Of a stretch of 46,219 nt of DNA, positions 4,180 through 46,219 are shown piece by piece (position 1 is the first letter of the stretch; each line of letters begins with the position of its first letter). Below the pieces are notes generated by a model, which saw only the letters and a list, made by a program, of their open reading frames with translations, was not told where the DNA came from and did no database searches. Source of the stretch: a virus (taxonomy: Duplodnaviria; Heunggongvirae; Uroviricota; Caudoviricetes); the IMG/VR virus record IMGVR_UViG_2706794662_000004; one strand, 5' to 3'. Made by a program: the position numbers and the translations under genes.

Positions 4180-4371
4180 TTACTCCCCGTTCACCGAAAA
4201 ATCACGATAGAAACGTTTCCACATACGATAAGTCTGCGCGAGTTGTTCACCACGAAACATCGCCTTCCTGGCCTTCATGTTTTCCTTGTGAGACTTTCGA
4301 TCTATGAACCAAAACCATTGCTGGAACACACAAAGCAAGAGACACAAAGATAATATCCACTGATTACCCAT
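4180..4371 (-). CDS. Small membrane protein (63 aa) translationally coupled to repA
   Basis: Internal Met (MGNQWILSLCLLLCVFQQWFWF...) whose ATG at 4371-4369 overlaps the repA stop codon; the longer 102-aa reading overlaps repA by 125 nt. Confidence 0.35.
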   Translation of the reverse strand: MGNQWILSLCLLLCVFQQWFWFIDRKSHKENMKARKAMFRGEQLAQTYRMWKRFYRDFSVNGE

Positions 4372-7300
4372 AGAAAGCGCCCTGCTCTTCGTAGCTGCAT
4401 GAGCTATTCCCGGTAATGTATTCTCGTAACCGCCGCAGTTCATTGCTGGACAAGTGATCCATGAACTCTGTGAGGTACAGAGATGCAAACGTCATAGCTA
4501 TGCTGGTTGATGACCATGATGACATAGTGGCCAGCTCCTCACCGGAAAGCGCACTCATCGCCCAGGACTCAGGAACAGCCACCGGCAATACGGCCAAAGC
4601 CTCAGAAATTACTGAATGAGGGGCGTTTTGAACCTGCTCGTTTGTGGATCGCGTTTTATCATCCATATATATATTGAGATCCAAATCGCGATCCATTTCG
4701 ATGGCTGTCTTCTCGGCTTTACGCGTTTTTAGGGTTAGGCCATCTTTCTGACGCTGAACAAGAATATCCAGCATAAATGCCGCTGATTCAGGCTCAACAA
4801 AACGCAAGGTTGGACGCTTATCGCCGTCTCTGCCGCGACGTTTACCTGTTTTAAGGCCAAGAGAGTCGCAAATGTTTTTAAACAACGCTTCCGGCACTTT
4901 AGGCTTCCCTTTTGGCGTCATAAAACCACCAATGTGCAGAACGTTATTCAACAGGTCACGGCGTTCGGCTGTCATGAGATTATCTCGAGCGAATTTGAGA
5001 CGCTCCTGAGTCGCCTCGCCGGTCATAGTCTCAGGGTTGATACCGCAGTCGATAAAGTACTGCCGGAGAGTTGCTGATTTAAGCGCATAGAAACCGCGCG
5101 CCCCGACTTCAACAGTAGGAGTAGCTTTTACCTTGTGATCGATTATTCCAGGGAATTTAGTTTTAAAGACATCATCAGCCTGCTCGCGAGTCATCGCGGT
5201 CACTACAAAATATTGCCACTGTCCCGCCTGACGGTATGCGTAGGTAAAATTGATGGCTGCTTCTTCCCGGTCGTAACGACGAGCTGTTACCTCATCTAAA
5301 AGCATTGTTTCATAGCGGCGAACTTTGTCTCGAGCACCATCGAAATAGAATTTCAGTGTGCCTTCTTCAACCGGTAGTTTCAGTTCGTTTTCAATATCCC
5401 AGCGGACAAGTTTTGCCTGTTCTTCAAGCGTCAGCGCGCGTTTTTTTAGCAGTTCTTCACGCTCTGATTCTTGTGGAGTTTCTGTATTGAGGTGCAGATC
5501 CAGTGTCTGTTCCCACACAATATCCCGCGCTTCTTTACGCAGATCTTTACCGATATCATTCGCAGCATAATCGGTGCCCAGCGGCGATACCTTATAACCG
5601 TCGCTGTGCATGATGCAGATCATGTTGCTGGCGTAGTCGTTACGCGCAGTCGCTTCAATTGCGGCTGCTTTAATTTTCATCCTGGTAAAGTCGGTATTGG
5701 CCACCCCCATTGATATACGGTCGCCATCGAAAATGACATCCGTCAGTTCACCGTTCATACCTGCGGTAGCAAGCAATGCCTGGGCGAATGCTCGTTCTAT
5801 TTTTTGCGGGTCAGTTTCACGTTTTGCACGAGCTTTATCAAAGCCGATAATAAATTCTTTTGCTGTACGGTCGCGGCGTAGCATTTGCACTGCGTCGCTG
5901 GGTACAACTTCACCACAGAACATGCCGAAATGACGGTCAAAATGTTTTTGCTCAATCGACACGCCGGATGAAATAGACGGGCTATAAATCAGGCCGTCGT
6001 ATTTTTTGACCATCTTTTTCGGTTGATTGGTAAATGCTTCAACTTCTGGCTCTGGTTTGTTTTTCTGGTTTACACACAGAAATTTCTTACCAGGAAAATG
6101 CATTCTCAGGGTGGCTGTCACATCTTCTGCAAAGGTGGAGCTGTCGGTGGCCAACATGATTTTTTCGCCATCCGATACAGCTTTCACCACCTCGGTCATG
6201 ATGCGATCTTTTTCTGTATAAAAAACCCGGATTGGCTCACCTGTTTCGCGGTTGCGAACATCAACAGGTAATTCAATTACGTGGATCTGCAGCCATGCCG
6301 GTAAACCTAGTTCTTCACGGCGTTTCATAGCCAGTTCAGCCAGGTCAACCAGCAGATCGTTCGCATCAGCATCCACCATGATTGGGTGTTGTTCCGTTCT
6401 GGCCAGCGCGTCAATTAGCGTATTGAATACAGCCACCGGGTTTTCCATAGCCCGACCGGAAAGAACGGCACGTAGCCCTTGTGTGGCCTCGTCAAAGCCA
6501 AAATAGTCGTGCTGGCGCATCAACGGTTGCCAGCAGTTTTTAACAATCGAGTTTATGCAGATGGTCAGTTTACTGGCGTATGGAGCCATTTCCTGATAGC
6601 CAGGGTCCTGATAGTGCAGGATATCGGCTTTTACACCTTTTCCTTCAGTCATCATTTCCCACAGGCCACCAATAAGGGAAACACGGTGAGCTACAGAGAT
6701 ACCGCGTTCTGAGCTATGCATTAACGGTCGTAACAATCCAGTAGATTTGCCGGAACCCATACCAGCACGAACGATGACGATCCCCTGTAGTGATTGCACG
6801 TACTTCAGGACGTCATCGGTCATTACCGAAGTTTCAAAACGCTTATAGGTGATATGTTGAGGGCGTTTATTGGGATCAGTTATGCGTTCGCTGAAAGAGC
6901 GCGGAGCCTGGGCAATACGGCACTTTTTATTCAGGCGACGGGCAATGTGGTCTTTTACCGTAGCGCGATAGATATTTTCCAGCCCCATTTCACGCAGAAC
7001 GATGCAGAACATGTTAAACAAATCTGACGGACTGTTAGGAACCGGACAGGTTAGCATGCCAATATCCACCGCTCTCAGCAGCTCTTTGGCAAAAGTACGA
7101 CGGTTATCCCGCTTAATTGTCTTCAGGCGGTTGAGCGTCAGAGATAGCAAATCAGTGCCGGTTTTCAGGCGGTTTGCTGTTGCAAATAGTTGACGTGCTG
7201 TTTCACGAAGTCCACGTAGTTTGTGCAGGTCGTTGAAGTCACTGCACTCCATTTGCGGATCGTCTTCAAAAGTTGGATAGACGCAGCGGACATCGTTGAA

Positions 7301-8359
7301 TTTCGATAAGATTTCATAGCCAGTCCGCAGGCCGGTATTCCCTTTTCCTTCTGTGGCTGATTTCCGGTCATTATCCAGTGCGCAGGTGATTTTTGCCGCC
7401 GGGTACATGTTTACCAGTTGTTCCACAACATGAACCATGTTGTTAGCGGATACAGCGACAACCACAGCGTCAAAGCGTTTATCTTTTTTCGTGGCAAGCC
7501 AGATGGATGCACCAGTAGCAAAACCTTCTGTAACAGCGATGTTTTGCGCCCCTTTCAGCTCACCGATAACAAAGCAGGCACCGACGAAATCGCCGCTGGT
7601 TACTGCGCTGGTCTGGTATTTCCCACCTTGTTTGTCGATTCGCTGCCAACCCACAATACGACCATCGTAACGACCGTCCAGGTGAGCCAGAGGGATAGCC
7701 ATATATGTGGTTGGCCCCCGGTTCCATTTCGCACTGTCGTGACTGGTCACGCGACGCACATCACATGAACTAAAAACGTCACGAATACCTTTTTTAATCG
7801 CATATGGCCATGAGCCGTCTTCTGCAGGAGCATGTTCCCACGCGCTGTGGAATGCCAGCCATCCCAGCAAACGTTCATGGTCCATTTGGTTGTTTTTCAG
7901 GTCATTAATTCGTTTTTGTTCTTCACGGCGACGACGTGCTTCGGCCTGACGTTTTATTCTTGCCCGTTCTTCTTCCGGTTGTGCGACCACGGTCGCATTA
8001 TTCCGTTGTTGCTCACGGCGATATTCAGAAAACAGGAAGGAGAAACCGCTCCATGAGCCAGCATCGCTGCCTTTATGGACGAAGTTAATGAACGGGTAAT
8101 CAATCCCTTTGCTGTGTTCCAGCCGAGAGTAAATTTCTACGCGTCCTTTGAGGCTCTTTTCGAGAGCTTCTGGAGATGTTTTATTGTATGAAGAGTAACG
8201 CTCAACACCCCCGCGAGGGTTGAGTTGGATGTTGTCGGAACAGGCAGACCAGTTGATACCAGCCATCTGTGCCAGCTCGGTTAGTTCATCCCGTGCTGCT
8301 TCAATTAGCGAGAACGGATCGCTGCCAAAGCGATCCGCATAGAAATCGTTTAATGTCAT
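4364..8359 (-). CDS. repA: Multifunctional replication protein RepA (primase-helicase, 1331 aa)
   Basis: Size close to N15 RepA (about 1324 aa as I recall); Walker A GMGSGKST in the central helicase part; position upstream of the cB immunity region as in N15. Confidence 0.85.
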   Translation of the reverse strand: MTLNDFYADRFGSDPFSLIEAARDELTELAQMAGINWSACSDNIQLNPRGGVERYSSYNKTSPEALEKSLKGRVEIYSRLEHSKGIDYPFINFVHKGSDAGSWSGFSFLFSEYRREQQRNNATVVAQPEEERARIKRQAEARRRREEQKRINDLKNNQMDHERLLGWLAFHSAWEHAPAEDGSWPYAIKKGIRDVFSSCDVRRVTSHDSAKWNRGPTTYMAIPLAHLDGRYDGRIVGWQRIDKQGGKYQTSAVTSGDFVGACFVIGELKGAQNIAVTEGFATGASIWLATKKDKRFDAVVVAVSANNMVHVVEQLVNMYPAAKITCALDNDRKSATEGKGNTGLRTGYEILSKFNDVRCVYPTFEDDPQMECSDFNDLHKLRGLRETARQLFATANRLKTGTDLLSLTLNRLKTIKRDNRRTFAKELLRAVDIGMLTCPVPNSPSDLFNMFCIVLREMGLENIYRATVKDHIARRLNKKCRIAQAPRSFSERITDPNKRPQHITYKRFETSVMTDDVLKYVQSLQGIVIVRAGMGSGKSTGLLRPLMHSSERGISVAHRVSLIGGLWEMMTEGKGVKADILHYQDPGYQEMAPYASKLTICINSIVKNCWQPLMRQHDYFGFDEATQGLRAVLSGRAMENPVAVFNTLIDALARTEQHPIMVDADANDLLVDLAELAMKRREELGLPAWLQIHVIELPVDVRNRETGEPIRVFYTEKDRIMTEVVKAVSDGEKIMLATDSSTFAEDVTATLRMHFPGKKFLCVNQKNKPEPEVEAFTNQPKKMVKKYDGLIYSPSISSGVSIEQKHFDRHFGMFCGEVVPSDAVQMLRRDRTAKEFIIGFDKARAKRETDPQKIERAFAQALLATAGMNGELTDVIFDGDRISMGVANTDFTRMKIKAAAIEATARNDYASNMICIMHSDGYKVSPLGTDYAANDIGKDLRKEARDIVWEQTLDLHLNTETPQESEREELLKKRALTLEEQAKLVRWDIENELKLPVEEGTLKFYFDGARDKVRRYETMLLDEVTARRYDREEAAINFTYAYRQAGQWQYFVVTAMTREQADDVFKTKFPGIIDHKVKATPTVEVGARGFYALKSATLRQYFIDCGINPETMTGEATQERLKFARDNLMTAERRDLLNNVLHIGGFMTPKGKPKVPEALFKNICDSLGLKTGKRRGRDGDKRPTLRFVEPESAAFMLDILVQRQKDGLTLKTRKAEKTAIEMDRDLDLNIYMDDKTRSTNEQVQNAPHSVISEALAVLPVAVPESWAMSALSGEELATMSSWSSTSIAMTFASLYLTEFMDHLSSNELRRLREYITGNSSCSYEEQGAFYG
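7982..7997. promoter_or_regulatory. 16-bp perfect palindrome TGCGACCACGGTCGCA, candidate SopB centromere site (copy 1, inside repA)
   Basis: Exact palindrome, one of five copies; resembles the F sopC core TGGGACCACGGTCCCA. Confidence 0.5.
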
Positions 8360-9201: not shown

Positions 9202-9223
9202 AGCTTAATCATAAATGATCTTC

Positions 9224-9264
9224 TTATAGCTGGCTATAAAATTTATTTATTATAGCTGGCTTTA
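9224..9264. promoter_or_regulatory. Operator/promoter region between cB and cro with repeated TTATAGCTGGCT sites
   Basis: ttatagctggctataa (9224-9239, near-palindrome) and ttatagctggcttta (9250-9264) in the divergent intergenic region. Confidence 0.5.
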
Positions 9265-9292
9265 ATTGTTGTTTATTGTTTATAATAACAAC

Positions 9293-9514: not shown

Positions 9515-10214
9515 GTATATACGCAGCTGCGTCTCTACGGCATTGGCTGATGTTCATTATCGCCAGCGTGGCATTCTGGAGGTCCAGCTTGAGCAGATGC
9601 GTCTCGGTAGATCAGGACGGTTTAACAATAAACCAGTCCGGTCAATCAGTGTGGGGGATGATAACTCATACGAAGTGTCCGTTCCTGCTGAGCCGGTTAG
9701 ATTCCACCAGGGGAAAACATTTAAACAATCATCAATGTTGCTCACTGATATTGATTTTCAGAGCGCCAGCTGGCGCAGGGCTATTGGTCAGTTGAATAAC
9801 GAGGAATCAGCCTGGCTTTATTATTGCTACGGATGCAAGCCTGATTACAACAATGATGTGATTGTTTGTCAGTGGTTATGGCTTGATTTTCTGGTTGCTC
9901 ATTCGGGGGGCGGCTTTAAAAAAATGAAGGCCTCCACGAAAAAAGCCATGCGGAAATTGATTTATTACGCGGCACAGCAGGTTAAATCAGAACTTACGTG
10001 TGCTGAGGCAGTTGATGAGAGAGAACAGGACAGGCATCTGAGTCTTCTACTGAATATATCTATTGATAGCTGGAGACAAGATTATAAAGAACGCTGGCTT
10101 TTAATTAAGTCGCGATGTCTGAGCTTAAATCGAACTGCATTATTAAATGCGGCGGAGAAGCGCAGTGAAATCATCAAACGCCATCGGGCAGGAAGTGCCA
10201 TTCTGCCTTTGTAA
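9504..10214 (+). CDS. Putative late-gene regulator (Q antiterminator position), 236 aa
   Basis: Positional inference only: third gene of the cB-cro-Q arrangement reported for N15 immB; no motif confirmed by eye. Confidence 0.3.
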   Translation: MELEYIRSCVSTALADVHYRQRGILEVQLEQMRLGRSGRFNNKPVRSISVGDDNSYEVSVPAEPVRFHQGKTFKQSSMLLTDIDFQSASWRRAIGQLNNEESAWLYYCYGCKPDYNNDVIVCQWLWLDFLVAHSGGGFKKMKASTKKAMRKLIYYAAQQVKSELTCAEAVDEREQDRHLSLLLNISIDSWRQDYKERWLLIKSRCLSLNRTALLNAAEKRSEIIKRHRAGSAILPL

Positions 10215-10221
10215 ACAAGTT

Positions 10222-10467
10222 ATGTTCAGGAAACCGTCGAAGCCAGAATTAAGGTATTCGGGGGTAAGAAATGAATATGTTATCTGGTGTCCAACTTGTG
10301 GTTACAGGACACGACCAGATAGTAATAAGCAGTCTGTAATTGCCGATTGGTATTTATCAAATCAGCCAGGTAATAAGCATATAGAAAATCTTTGGATTAA
10401 GCGTTACTTGGAAATCAGAGAGGGTGCGACCGTGGTCGCACAAGAAAATGAAAATAACGCCATTTAA
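10222..10467 (+). CDS. Small Cys-containing protein (CPTCGY), unknown function
   Basis: ORF starting at internal ATG 10222 immediately after the previous stop; contains palindrome copy 2 in its 3' end. Confidence 0.35.
   Translation: MFRKPSKPELRYSGVRNEYVIWCPTCGYRTRPDSNKQSVIADWYLSNQPGNKHIENLWIKRYLEIREGATVVAQENENNAI
10425..10440. promoter_or_regulatory. 16-bp palindrome TGCGACCGTGGTCGCA (copy 2)
   Basis: Exact palindrome, same family as 7982, 14806, 17816, 18036. Confidence 0.5.
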
Positions 10468-12999: not shown

Positions 13000-13242
13000 A
13001 TGGATAAAAAGGCATTGCTTTTTGAAATGATACGAAAACGGAGCGAAAAGAGCTTTTCTGATGGTGGTGATGGGTTTGTTTTCGCTTCTATGCTTGCTTT
13101 TGATGTTGGGTTAAATAGCAGAATTGTTAAAAGGATGCTTGATTCTGCTGTCCGTGATGGGCTTTTGGAAGTGGTTGGGCGAGGAGTAGGAAGGGAACAT
13201 AAGTATCGGACTACAAAGATATTTAACCAGTTAATCTATTGA
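13000..13242 (+). CDS. Hypothetical protein (80 aa)
   Basis: ORF with GGAGGG RBS. Confidence 0.5.
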   Translation: MDKKALLFEMIRKRSEKSFSDGGDGFVFASMLAFDVGLNSRIVKRMLDSAVRDGLLEVVGRGVGREHKYRTTKIFNQLIY

Positions 13243-13243
13243 A

Positions 13244-13286
13244 AGTTGGCTATAAAATTTGAGTTTTACCCTGTAATTTTATACAG
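13244..13286. promoter_or_regulatory. CB-operator-like site (gttggctataaaattt) plus LexA box CTGT-N8-ACAG (13271-13286) upstream of a small gene
   Basis: tggctataaaattt matches the cB/cro operator repeat at 9231-9244; ccCTGTaattttatACAGta matches the LexA consensus TACTGT-N8-ACAGTA at 17/20. Confidence 0.55.
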
Positions 13287-14799: not shown

Positions 14800-14805
14800 A
14801 AACTG

Positions 14806-14821
14806 TGCGACCACGGTCGCA
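14806..14821. promoter_or_regulatory. 16-bp palindrome TGCGACCACGGTCGCA (copy 3)
   Basis: Exact palindrome in the intergenic region upstream of the methyltransferase gene. Confidence 0.5.
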
Positions 14822-17795: not shown

Positions 17796-17815
17796 AAATC
17801 TCTTTGTTTCTCGTT

Positions 17816-17831
17816 TGCGACCGTGGTCGCA
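17816..17831. promoter_or_regulatory. 16-bp palindrome TGCGACCGTGGTCGCA (copy 4), immediately left of repeat element copy A
   Basis: Exact palindrome. Confidence 0.5.
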
Positions 17832-18015: not shown

Positions 18016-18035
18016 AGGGCATGTATTCAGGAGCG

Positions 18036-18051
18036 TGCGACCGTGGTCGCA
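18036..18051. promoter_or_regulatory. 16-bp palindrome TGCGACCGTGGTCGCA (copy 5), immediately right of repeat element copy A
   Basis: Exact palindrome, 25 bp upstream of the RBS of the 286-aa cargo gene. Confidence 0.5.
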
Positions 18052-42980: not shown

Positions 42981-43555
42981 TGGCATTCAGAATGAGTGAA
43001 CAACCACGGACCATAAAAATTTATAATCTGCTGGCCGGAACTAATGAATTTATTGGTGAAGGTAACGCATATATTCCGCCTCATACAGGTCTGCCAGCAA
43101 ACAGTACCGATATTGCACCACCAGATATTCCTGCTGGCTTTGTGGCTGTTTTCAACAGTGATGAGGCATCGTGGCATCTCGTTGAAGATCATCGGGGTAA
43201 AACGGTTTATGACGTGGCTTCCGGCGACGCGTTATTTATTTCTGAACTCGGTCCGTTACCGAAAAATGTTACCTGGTTATCGCCGGAAGGGGAGTTTCAG
43301 AAGTGGAACGGCACAGCCTGGGTGAAGGATACGGAAGCAGAAAAACTGTTCCGGATCCGGGAGGCGGAAGAAACAAAAAACAACCTGATGCAGGTAGCCA
43401 GTGAGCATATTGCGCCGCTTCAGGATGCTGTAGATCTGGAAATCGCAACAGAGGAAGAAACCTCGTTGCTGGAAGCTTGGAAAAAGTATCGGGTGTTGCT
43501 GAACCGTGTTGATACATCACTATCTCCAGATATCGAGTGGCCAAGTCAACCATAA
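42980..43555 (+). CDS. tfa: Tail fibre assembly protein Tfa
   Basis: [28 protein letters not shown] matches recalled lambda Tfa. Confidence 0.85.
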
Positions 43556-43587: not shown

Positions 43588-44553
43588 TTAATTATCAGTA
43601 GATTGTTCCTCTAGTAACAACTCAATTCTGCTTAGTATTTCTTTAGATATTTTGCGGCTATCAATTTTTATAGTTACAAAATTACCTTTATATCTAGCCG
43701 TGATCCCTTCCCCATATTTTTTCTCGTCTTTTGTTTTTTCCTCGTCGCCAACCAGAACAGAGTCAGATAATATTTGTATAATCCGTGAAGCTTCTAAATC
43801 CTCGCCGTTTTTTTTAATTACTAGAAGATGATGAGCAGCATTGCTCATGGCAGCCATGTTTTTTTTGTAAACCTTAAACAAAGAATCTCCAGCACGAGCT
43901 GACAGTTCTCCTGGATGATTGAAGATAGCTAATATATCTTTTGGTAGACCAGCTGTATTAATACAGCGAGTGATAATATTTCTATCTATATTTTCAGCCT
44001 CGGCTAATGCTTTAACGTTACCATCAAAGTCATTTAGCTTGCGTAAGTATCTCTTTCCTCTTTCGTATGCACTAATAGGTCTATAATCGTTACCAATTTG
44101 GGATAACCAATGCATCTGTTCATCGTCGAGATCACCAATTAAGACGCGATAGTCACATCCTGTTAATATCGCTGCTTTTCTTCTACGTGAGCCGTCAGCG
44201 ACTTCAACGATTCCAGATACTTTTCTGGCGAAAGCTGGATTTTGTTGTCCAGACGTTAGAAAAGATGGGATTAAATCGGCTAGAGAGGATTCATTTAATA
44301 AATCTTGATCGCGTTCATTACCTAGCCATACCATTGTTGCCATTTCAACTTTATCTGCGGGAATTGTCTCTAACTTAAAGTTAACATTACGTCCGCATAC
44401 TGGCAAAGTTATGCTGTTACCGGTTAATGAACTCAGTTGACGTTTTAAATCACCAACCATAGGTGATACGGGCTGATGTTCAGGGGCATGATGATTATTA
44501 CTCATAATGCGATTAATATCTGGAGCATTTTTTAGAAGAGAGCGCTGTTTCAT
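43588..44553 (-). CDS. sopB: Partition protein SopB (ParB family)
   Basis: 321-aa ORF immediately downstream of and overlapping sopA; ParB-like features. Confidence 0.75.
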   Translation of the reverse strand: MKQRSLLKNAPDINRIMSNNHHAPEHQPVSPMVGDLKRQLSSLTGNSITLPVCGRNVNFKLETIPADKVEMATMVWLGNERDQDLLNESSLADLIPSFLTSGQQNPAFARKVSGIVEVADGSRRRKAAILTGCDYRVLIGDLDDEQMHWLSQIGNDYRPISAYERGKRYLRKLNDFDGNVKALAEAENIDRNIITRCINTAGLPKDILAIFNHPGELSARAGDSLFKVYKKNMAAMSNAAHHLLVIKKNGEDLEASRIIQILSDSVLVGDEEKTKDEKKYGEGITARYKGNFVTIKIDSRKISKEILSRIELLLEEQSTDN

Positions 44554-45719
44554 TATTCGTTCTCCCAGCGAGGTTTTATTAGATCATCAAAAATTTCTCG
44601 GCAAACAGGGTCCCATATAGAAACAGCATTTCTCCATGCATTCAATGTTGAACGTTGGTTTGCTGCTTGTTCAAATACTGTTCTCATTTTTATCTGGCCT
44701 TTACCTACTTCATCGGTAACGCGTACAACCTGACGTAATACCATTGATCCCCATGTATTTCTTATTTGTTCTTCCATCCATCGTGATTGATTCCCTGTAG
44801 TGAGACTATATTTAGTCAGAAGTAAGCGAACGGTTGGCTCAAATCCACCTAGGTCAACGCTTTCCAATAGATCGAGAAGCATTGTGAAAAACTGTAGAAC
44901 AGAAGCGTAATCAAATAATTCTGCAGGTGTAGCAACAACAATAACGTCAGCGGCACAAACAACGTTAATGGTTCCTGTACCGAGGTTCGGAGCACTATCT
45001 ATAACGATAACATCGTAGTTATCCCAAACTGATTCAATAGCTGCGCGCAGCATAAGGTGTGGAGGATGAGGCAATTTACCCTGAGCATGATATTGCATGA
45101 GATCTGTTTCTATACGATGTAAGGCTAGGCAGCTAGGGATAATGTCTAGCCCAGGCCAACATGTTGGCTTTATAGCATATTCAGCGTTATCGCGTTCTCC
45201 TAAGTAAAATGGCAGTAAAGTATCCTCGGCATGGATATGTAAATCAGGAACATAACCGTGATACATAGAGGCCGTGCCTTGAGGATCGTTACCTTCAACC
45301 AAAAGAACACGATGACCTTGTAATGCTAACCATTGAGCTTGATGTACCGCAGACGATGTTTTATAAACGCCGCCTTTGTGTGACATAACGGCAAGCACAA
45401 CAGGGTTTTTATCTTGTGGTCGTTGGTTTGGGTTGCCAAAAACTGCTCGCATACTGTTGATTTGATCTATGGTATAACCAGCACGACGTTCAATTCTTCC
45501 TCTCATTTCAAAGTCAGGTGCAGGTAAACGCCCGCTCTTCTCAGCATCTCTAATTGCTTGAGGAGTTACACCAATTAAATCTGCTACTTCAGTTATACCC
45601 CATCGGCGGGTGATACGCCGAGCTTCAGGACTATCATCACCGAATTGAGCGATAGCAATTGCTTGGGTCATTTCTTGACCTCTCGTAACACAATCTTGCA
45701 ATAACTTTTTCAAAGACAT
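44553..45719 (-). CDS. sopA: Partition ATPase SopA (ParA family)
   Basis: 388-aa ORF with Walker A KGGVYKTS and N-terminal HTH; extensive identity to F SopA as I recall it. Confidence 0.9.
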   Translation of the reverse strand: MSLKKLLQDCVTRGQEMTQAIAIAQFGDDSPEARRITRRWGITEVADLIGVTPQAIRDAEKSGRLPAPDFEMRGRIERRAGYTIDQINSMRAVFGNPNQRPQDKNPVVLAVMSHKGGVYKTSSAVHQAQWLALQGHRVLLVEGNDPQGTASMYHGYVPDLHIHAEDTLLPFYLGERDNAEYAIKPTCWPGLDIIPSCLALHRIETDLMQYHAQGKLPHPPHLMLRAAIESVWDNYDVIVIDSAPNLGTGTINVVCAADVIVVATPAELFDYASVLQFFTMLLDLLESVDLGGFEPTVRLLLTKYSLTTGNQSRWMEEQIRNTWGSMVLRQVVRVTDEVGKGQIKMRTVFEQAANQRSTLNAWRNAVSIWDPVCREIFDDLIKPRWENE

Positions 45720-45739: not shown

Positions 45740-45822
45740 ACTTTGCTTAATAATTAAATCTTTGCTTATTTCTAGCAAATTTGCATGAAAAAGGCAAAGC
45801 AAAACGAAAAACGCAAAGGCGA
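45740..45822. promoter_or_regulatory. sopAB promoter/operator region with repeated CTTTGC / GCAAAG motifs
   Basis: Five copies of ctttgc or its complement within about 80 bp directly upstream of sopA. Confidence 0.35.
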
Positions 45823-45994
45823 ATATTTGAGCTAAATCATCTTTTTTTCCCCTCCCGAAATGCATAAAACGAACAACAATATAATCATAACTAATTGATA
45901 TTTATTACCTTTCTTAAGAAAGGAAATCATATAAAACTAGAGAAACATGATAAGAATCATCAATGAGATACGTTTTCTCTATTAGTTCTCCCAA

Positions 45995-46132
45995 CCTTAC
46001 AAATATAAGAACACAAATACAGAACATAAAAACCAAGTAATAACACAAACACAATAAAGAACACAAATAAAGAATTAAAACAAATGTTAAACAAAACAGT
46101 ACGCAAACTGAGAACATTACATTAAATAAGAA
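45995..46132. repeat. Cluster of AGAACA(C/T)-type direct repeats next to the right telomere
   Basis: At least six copies of agaaca within about 140 bp; the left telomere-proximal region (110-160) carries the complementary tgttct motif. Confidence 0.4.
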
Positions 46133-46218
46133 CACTAATTAAGAACATAACGAAACATAATTCCCCATTATACGCGCGTATAATGGGGAATTATGTTTCG
46201 TTATGTTCTTAATTAGTG
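46133..46218. repeat. Right telomere palindrome (hairpin telR read through the turn); centre at 46175/46176
   Basis: 86-bp perfect palindrome sharing the same 40-bp core as the left end but with different outer arms. Confidence 0.7.
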
Positions 46219-46219
46219 T

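Follow-up and report, generated by a model that had tools for sequence, protein, structure and literature searches.

What the short AGAACA repeats beside both telomeres of this linear DNA are, and which protein might read them, are the two questions that this locus raises. The window, i.e. the whole stretch of 46,219 bases analysed here, is a complete N15-like (Ravinvirus) linear plasmid prophage. At its left end a telomere palindrome is followed by the protelomerase gene telN (246–2159, + strand), repA occupies 4364–8359 (− strand), and near the right end sopB (43588–44553, − strand, with a SoPB_HTH domain) and sopA (44553–45719, − strand) are followed by an intergenic region that leads to a second palindrome. 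The assembly read across both covalently closed hairpins and thereby duplicated the outermost bases: positions 1–54 are the reverse complement of 55–108, and 46176–46219 that of 46132–46175. These fold-back copies lie outside the true molecule (55–46175), whose centres of symmetry are at 54|55 (left) and 46175|46176 (right). The telL half-site (55–82, + strand) carries the outer box ATTATGTGCTG, which is CAGCACATAAT on the strand read tipward, and the telRL-type palindrome has TACGCGCGTA at its centre. On the right hairpin arm the telR half-site (46148–46175, + strand) carries CGAAACATAAT and not CAGCACATAAT; this outer telR box (46148–46160, corresponding to 70–82 on the left) has diverged in the clade of the window, whereas the telR of PhiR46_1 keeps CAGCACATAAT. 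As a result of the divergence, the perfect palindrome within the joined telRL measures just 42 bp, and the two halves of telRL are non-equivalent.

Relatives were gathered by tblastn with TelN against phage and plasmid collections, since scans with full-length TelN were swamped by its poly-Glu pattern (0 loci in genome contigs and 2 in viral contigs); 228 plasmids bearing TelN came out of the plasmid collection. The nearest relatives among deposited sequences are plasmids of E. coli and E. albertii together with the phages PhiR46_1 and YDC107_1, with TelN ~99% identical and right arms 79–99% identical to those of the window; the TelN of N15 itself is 83% identical. Three records (YDC107_1, NZ_LR883007 and the S. 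arizonae element NZ_CP082957) contain long perfect inverted duplications centred on telL, with arms of 291–1329 bp and, in two cases, telN annotated on both sides. In these “complete” records the duplications look like head-to-head assembly artefacts or unresolved telLL dimers.

AGAACAY occurs six times on the + strand of the right arm (46008, 46021, 46058, 46111, 46129 and 46142, spanning 46008–46148), which bears out the original prediction of at least six direct agaaca(c/t) copies between the sopA upstream region and the right telomere. Its range of 45995–46132 was too short: it holds four whole copies, while the fifth is cut and the sixth falls outside. The tgttct motifs reported near the left telomere (110–160) are also there, as two copies (113–118 and 151–156), and a further pair directly beside that telomere, AGAACA (86–91) and GGAACA (99–104), had been overlooked. 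Window-wide, AGAACAY has 29 matches against 10.4 ± 3.3 expected; a − strand match at 46203 is an artefact, as it lies inside the fold-back 46176–46219. The excess is strong in both arms: the right arm (158 bp) holds 6 copies of AGAACA against a mean of 0.54 in dinucleotide shuffles (maximum 4; 0 of 5000 reached 6), and the left arm (83–245) holds 4, two in each orientation, against 0.16 expected (0 of 5000 shuffles). When the search was widened to RGAACA, the two densest 200-bp windows of the whole molecule turned out to be its two ends. Chance or A-rich composition as the source of the repeats is thus ruled out by the local dinucleotide shuffles.

An unbiased repeat search returned an 18-nt family, AAGAACACAAATACAGAA, at 46007, 46057 and 46128, each member of which consists of two half-sites with starts 13 bp apart; a 22-bp two-part unit reads AAGAACACTAATTAAGAACATA. 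The first of these units (46008–46029, + strand, at −168/−155 from the telRL centre) joins AGAACACAA (46008–46016) to AGAACATAA (46021–46029), again with 13 bp between starts, and has an orthologous unit in both N15 and phiKO2 in the right-arm alignment. It is followed by a variant copy in the Klebsiella-type spelling, ATAACACAA (46040–46048, + strand, at −136). In the second unit (46058–46076, + strand, at −118/−105) AGAACACAA (46058–46066) is paired with a degenerate AGAATT (46071–46076); of the 11 E. coli-group arms, 10 keep the first half unaltered, and the N15 orthologue lies at −121/−108. A single AGAACAT (46111–46117, + strand, at −65) is absent from some relatives, and the PhiR46_1 group instead has a new copy 13 columns upstream. 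The third unit (46129–46150, + strand, at −47/−34) combines AGAACAC (46129–46135) with AGAACATAA (46142–46150) and abuts telR, its −47 copy being common to the Klebsiella clade and its −34 copy to the N15/Enterobacter clade.

The left arm opens with another two-part unit (86–104, + strand, at +32/+45), composed of the overlooked pair; the +32 copy is found in every relative examined, as GAACA in the E. coli, N15 and Enterobacter elements and as TAACA in those of Klebsiella and Salmonella. Beyond it are three tip-pointing elements on the − strand: AGAACAT (112–118) with the conserved core ATTGTGTT (122–129) next to it, together 112–129; ATTGTGTTCT (147–156, AGAACACAAT on the − strand) at +97, kept in all clades; and ATTGTGTTAC (204–216, GTAACACAAT on the − strand) at +154. 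The 13-bp pairing therefore appears again at 86/99, as it does in N15 at −121/−108, +32/+45 and +141/+154, and the spacing between successive right-arm copies as a whole is irregular (13, 37, 53, 18 and 13 bp).

The repeats had been expected to flank the protelomerase target symmetrically once the ends are joined, which is only partly true: the distal copies are inverted between the arms, but the +32/+45 pair is direct. All 6–7 right-arm copies point tipward, while on the left the two proximal copies point away from the tip and the following 2–4 point tipward, such that the orientation flips ~50 bp inside the left arm (at about +50) and not at the centre of symmetry. N15 has the same exception to inversion and the Klebsiella phages share it, which means that the arrangement is conserved yet is not a mirror image.

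In order to place the copies in a comparative frame, the arms were joined in silico and compared with 11 relatives for which a joined telRL or both arms were available. Copies were found at about −168/−156, ~−120, −47, −34, +32, +45, +73, +97, +141 and +154 from the telRL centre, in a position comparison that covered the window, N15, three Enterobacter elements, phiKO2, a second Klebsiella plasmid and a metagenomic relative. According to the position table and the alignments of both arms, the repeat positions of the window are orthologous to those of N15 itself. Relatives with conserved telomeres carry the repeats too, so the absence that the original prediction had named as evidence against itself is not what we found. 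All copies lie within ~200 bp on either side of telRL (from −168 to +154), beside a TelK/TelN-family protelomerase gene, and we are highly confident that they are the tos-type repeats of an N15-like telomere-resolution region.

This conservation stands out from surroundings that are only 60% identical across clades in the right arm and 76% in the left. If the telL core and the telN start are set aside, just three 7-mers of the left-arm alignment reach ≥90% identity, all of them occurrences of ATTGTGT(T), at columns 69, 94 and 151, of which ATTGTGTT (columns 69–76) is one; no block of the left arm is better conserved than that at +154, where windows reach 100% identity or come close to it. In the 11 E. 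coli-group right arms the motif columns average 94% identity against 84% for the spacers (Mann–Whitney p = 0.0013), with 4–7 copies kept per arm across the group and two copies lost and one gained in the PhiR46_1 lineage. Such figures bear on the idea that function is confined to the copies of the left arm, which would be promoter or operator elements of telN, and that the right array is largely a neutral relic of duplicated telomere-arm sequence, which we consider unlikely; that the array was made by slippage or by telomere exchange or fusion events, as the same idea would have it, seems equally improbable. The best conserved blocks do lie in the left arm upstream of telN, the strongest of them overlapping a putative extended −10 element, and the right-arm copies are gained and lost between close relatives within an arm that retains just 60% cross-clade identity. 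Against that same 60% background, however, the three right-arm two-part units are positionally orthologous across the E. coli, N15 and Klebsiella clades, every right-arm copy keeps a single orientation, and the motif columns outscore the spacers in conservation, with 4–7 copies in each lineage despite the turnover.

Besides a protelomerase, the original prediction had named a replication or partition factor as a possible binder and had called the repeats iteron-like. Neither proposal held. Plasmid iterons can be rejected because the repeats are not at an origin or rep gene and do not form regular tandem units of ~17–22 bp: the distance of repA exceeds 4 kb at the left end and is 38 kb at the right, the spacing is irregular, and replication of N15 starts within repA (PMC2847241). 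A centromere of the sopC/parS type was likewise rejected, as AGAACAY is not palindromic and five TGCGACCNNGGTCGCA palindromes sit elsewhere. These sopC-like palindromes, GTGCGACC(AC/GT)GGTCGCAC, are found at 7980–7997, 10423–10440, 14804–14821, 17814–17831 and 18034–18051, one of them inside repA, and resemble both F sopC and the dispersed centromere sites of N15-type elements. At the F sopAB promoter, the SopA operator is a cluster of CTTTGC hexamers. Four SopA-operator-like CTTTGC/GCAAAG boxes, two per strand, occur just upstream of sopA (45741–45818), and this cluster, ~190 bp from the first AGAACA copy and different in motif, speaks against a SopA operator in the repeats. The SopB-type palindromes and SopA-type boxes are hence distinct sites located elsewhere. 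What remains in favour of RepA iterons or SopAB centromere or operator sites is that the direct repeats adjoin the sopA upstream region; the same repeats also occur on the left arm, far from sopAB, and we regard this explanation as extremely improbable. The repeats are thus real, non-random, conserved in position and neither Sop nor RepA sites.

Several other features of the window were recorded along the way. No Rfam family matched in the subtelomere, where the fold z-score was −0.56, and a promoter scan of the right-arm array gave nothing conserved. Above the gathering score, Rfam matches were obtained elsewhere, for C4 antisense RNA and isrK (2813–2899 and 2925–2998, both on the − strand) beside the antirepressor region, and for IS009 (43323–43521, + strand) between the tail-fibre region and sopB. 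A promoter-like TTGACT-18-CATAAT on the − strand (98–69), not conserved in N15, is directed at the left hairpin tip and, once the ends are joined, would be directed across telRL to sopA. A ~90-bp block (45915–45990) that separates the sop promoter region from the repeats is 94% identical among the E. coli-group relatives, compared with ~84.5% in the preceding 77 alignment columns and 84% in the spacers of the repeat array. The block contains a promoter-like TTATCA-16-TATGAT on the − strand (45953–45926) and no stable RNA fold, and the N15 sequence in its place is unrelated. Finally, a ~27-nt motif, ATCTATTGATAGCTGGCTATAAAATTT, has four copies within 9218–9270, 10058–10084 and 13234–13260, which may be repressor operator sites of the immunity region.

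If neither replication nor partition accounts for the repeats, the telomere site itself offers a closer resemblance. The repeat consensus AGAACAYAA and the outer telRL box, AGCACAYAA, are a single base apart, and the core shared across clades, ACACAAT, is the inner part of this outer TelN recognition box. A position weight matrix (PWM) built only from copies outside telRL was scanned over 14 telRL half-sites, and in 14 of 14 its best match was the outer box, in the same register and on the tipward strand (empirical p = 0.002–0.01 each). With ≤2 mismatches allowed, the full 11-bp box shows no enrichment over the window (21 matches where 15 are expected), and just two of the subtelomeric copies pass, which counts against the TelN reading; the likeness is confined to a core of 6–7 bp, so that the notion of a degenerate box copy draws on the 6–9-bp core and the PWM. 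The reuse of the outer part extends to more distant elements: the outer segment (−20 to −30) is what is most over-represented of the tel site in the flanks of N15, E. asburiae, PY54, VP882 and phiHAP-1, with the reiterated motif GGTTAC in PY54, ATGTACA in VP882 and TATGTATG in phiHAP-1, each belonging to the outer part of the phage's own tel site. For the window, phiKO2 and the metagenomic relative, the top matches in the flanks are the −31 to −36 flanking copies themselves. The repeats are therefore box-like, and their spelling follows the clade of the phage: (A/G)GAACA in the E. coli, N15 and Enterobacter elements, (A/G)TAACA in those of Klebsiella and CGTAACA in the Salmonella arizonae element. 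As the motif is not constant across enterobacterial hosts, the pattern points to a phage-encoded reader.

The presumed binder is TelN, encoded by telN, in which the Pfam domains TelK_N, muzzle, catalytic and stirrup (443–533) are recognized and which matches the TelK structure 2v6e with E = 6e-295. We lean towards TelN as the reader of the repeats, which would act as low-affinity accessory sites, a preference that comes from sequence comparison. Each copy would be an oriented, degenerate version of the outer recognition box, and the stirrup, which reads the outer box, would be the most likely domain to read the repeats as well. Within the GAACA clade the stirrup is 94% identical and between clades 81%, with clade-specific residues clustered at 492–498, and among the Pfam-assigned domains (TelK_N, muzzle, catalytic and stirrup) it shows the sharpest between-clade drop. 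Behind the stirrup come an acidic linker and a C-terminal domain of ~50 aa; the latter drops from 78% to 56% and the segment before the catalytic domain from 90% to 77%. Since both fall as much as the stirrup or more, domain divergence cannot single out the reader. The C-terminal domain was modelled by single-sequence AlphaFold2 as three or four beta-strands followed by a helix (pLDDT 76), and a Foldseek search of this domain against the PDB returned nothing below E = 0.1, just weak Sac7d-like similarity. In the region covering residues ~535–637 (1850–2156), the length of the poly-Glu run varies among near-identical relatives, while the ~50-aa domain is conserved.

Two of the observations that count against TelN concern the sites themselves. 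Between the GAACA and TAACA clades the repeats change at one position and the outer box does not, which is awkward if a single domain reads both, and the orientation of the proximal left copies is the opposite of what a symmetric dimer model would call for. The first of these would instead fit an independently evolving reader, either a further DNA-binding protein of the phage or an architectural factor by which telomere-proximal DNA is organised: the motif changes from G to T at position 2 between clades as the TelN outer box stays constant, the 13-bp head-to-tail units suggest a small tandem-binding domain and not the large TelN core, and the window has many uncharacterised small ORFs. We nevertheless hold such a protein to be improbable. 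No candidate for it was identified, the shared core of the repeats is identical to the core of the TelN box, and the outer box is likewise reused by PY54 and the Hapunaviruses, phages that are unrelated in their other genes. Furthermore, minimal linear vectors require only repA, telN and tos (PMC2847241), and a conserved host factor is unlikely because the motif varies among phages of closely related enterobacterial hosts.

If TelN is the reader, the copies could load extra TelN over ~170 bp of each arm, and the higher local occupancy would allow efficient resolution of telRL, telLL and telRR at the low native level of TelN and would keep finished hairpins covered against SbcCD. A related proposal has been published: the 2025 TelN/SbcCD study speculates on higher-order TelN assemblies over the flanking repeats (PMC12624138), its authors suggesting in EMBO J that the stirrup (their CTD1) binds all repeats to form a protective assembly or that TelN loops the DNA. 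The accessory-site idea of the original prediction is accordingly plausible for TelN and had already been proposed in the literature, whereas symmetry, iterons and partition sites found no support. When the C-terminal domains are missing, TelN can still shield hairpins from SbcCD, although it then needs induction or over-expression, which the wild type does not (PMC12624138); the stirrup is thus dispensable for protection under TelN over-expression, which counts against an array of TelN sites. [quoted passage not shown]

On the left arm the sites extend into the telN promoter region, where TelN occupancy could repress telN (autoregulation). The +154 copy (204–213) overlaps a putative extended −10 element, TGT-TACGAT (208–216), 30 bp upstream of the telN start codon, and the +141 copy of N15 sits within the promoter spacer; given these overlaps, the left array could make telN self-limiting. 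We assigned the putative telN promoter from the sequence, and the promoter scan did not call the TGT-TACGAT element. The conservation of the +154 copy may simply be due to the telN promoter, which would count against its being a TelN site. TelN binding and its effects are what we infer from the box-like motif, its oriented placement and the neighbouring telN.

These elements can be joined into a single, more ambitious proposal, in which the repeats are more than loose “degenerate copies”, the conserved, oriented two-part array loads a multi-TelN cap and sets TelN synthesis, and the change from GAACA to TAACA is a specificity code; taken as a whole it is possible but doubtful. Were it true, a defined cap over ~170 bp of each arm would be, by analogy, what telomere arrays of the Rap1 or shelterin type are elsewhere, but in bacteria, telomere occupancy of the left array, which runs into the telN promoter, would set TelN synthesis, and the specificity code would be read by the stirrup or the ~50-aa C-terminal domain, unlike the code of the core site. 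As the proximal left unit is flipped, the structure of one telomere would not match that of the other, and telLL junctions would likewise be unlike telRR junctions. The comparison yields a map that can be mutated, with conserved copies, their orientation, the 13-bp pairing, the clade-specific base and the overlap with the telN promoter, and this map bears on how hairpins are covered and resolved at very low protelomerase levels. It is also relevant to the design of TelN/tos linear vectors, for which either a minimal 56-bp site or a tos fragment of 0.4–0.5 kb is in use.

In other tyrosine recombinase systems, such as lambda attP with its arm-type sites and Xer with its accessory sequences, oriented asymmetric sites flank the core site, are read by an extra DNA-binding domain and govern efficiency and directionality, not chemistry. 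The likeness to the repeats of the window is a functional analogy only, with no homology, and no sign was seen here of a second reading domain, host bending proteins or directionality control. Among the protelomerase phages, PY54 has a target of 142 bp that contains a 42-bp palindrome, flanked by an inverted repeat of 15 bp, and PY54, VP882 and phiHAP-1 resemble the window in that an outer tel part is repeated in the flanks (GGTTAC in PY54, CTATGTA(C/T) in the Hapunaviruses); they differ in that their motif sequences are unrelated and their TelN is 27–43% identical. phiKO2 and the Klebsiella N15-like prophages, which carry the TelK target, have the same layout, with positions −122, −47, +32, +73, +97 and +154, but the motif is (A/G)TAACA and not (A/G)GAACA, the outer box CAGCACACAA being unchanged.

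N15 is the closest comparison. Its natural TelN target, tos (“telomerase occupancy site”), has a stated length of 310 bp (PMC12624138, summarising Deneke et al. [quoted passage not shown] These published copies would correspond to our GAACA copies. The 0.4-kb tos fragment of the minimal pJAZZ vector (PMC2847241), when its primers were mapped, proved to cover exactly the N15 repeat field; in the GenBank records of N15 and PY54 just the palindrome is annotated. The window shares with N15 tos the place between sopA and telN, the telRL core, the relation to the outer L3/R3 box and (A/G)GAACA copies at the same distances (−34, +32, +45, +97 and +154). It differs in that it has 7 copies on the right and 5–6 on the left, where the available part of the published description gives at least two per side; in that several copies are paired 13 bp apart and the proximal left pair is direct and not inverted, again relative to that part of the description; and in that its telR outer box has diverged to CGAAACATAAT, which shortens the perfect palindrome to 42 bp. 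The feature is already described for N15, of which the window carries the orthologous set, and the main value of the comparison lies in the precise map of the repeats across clades.
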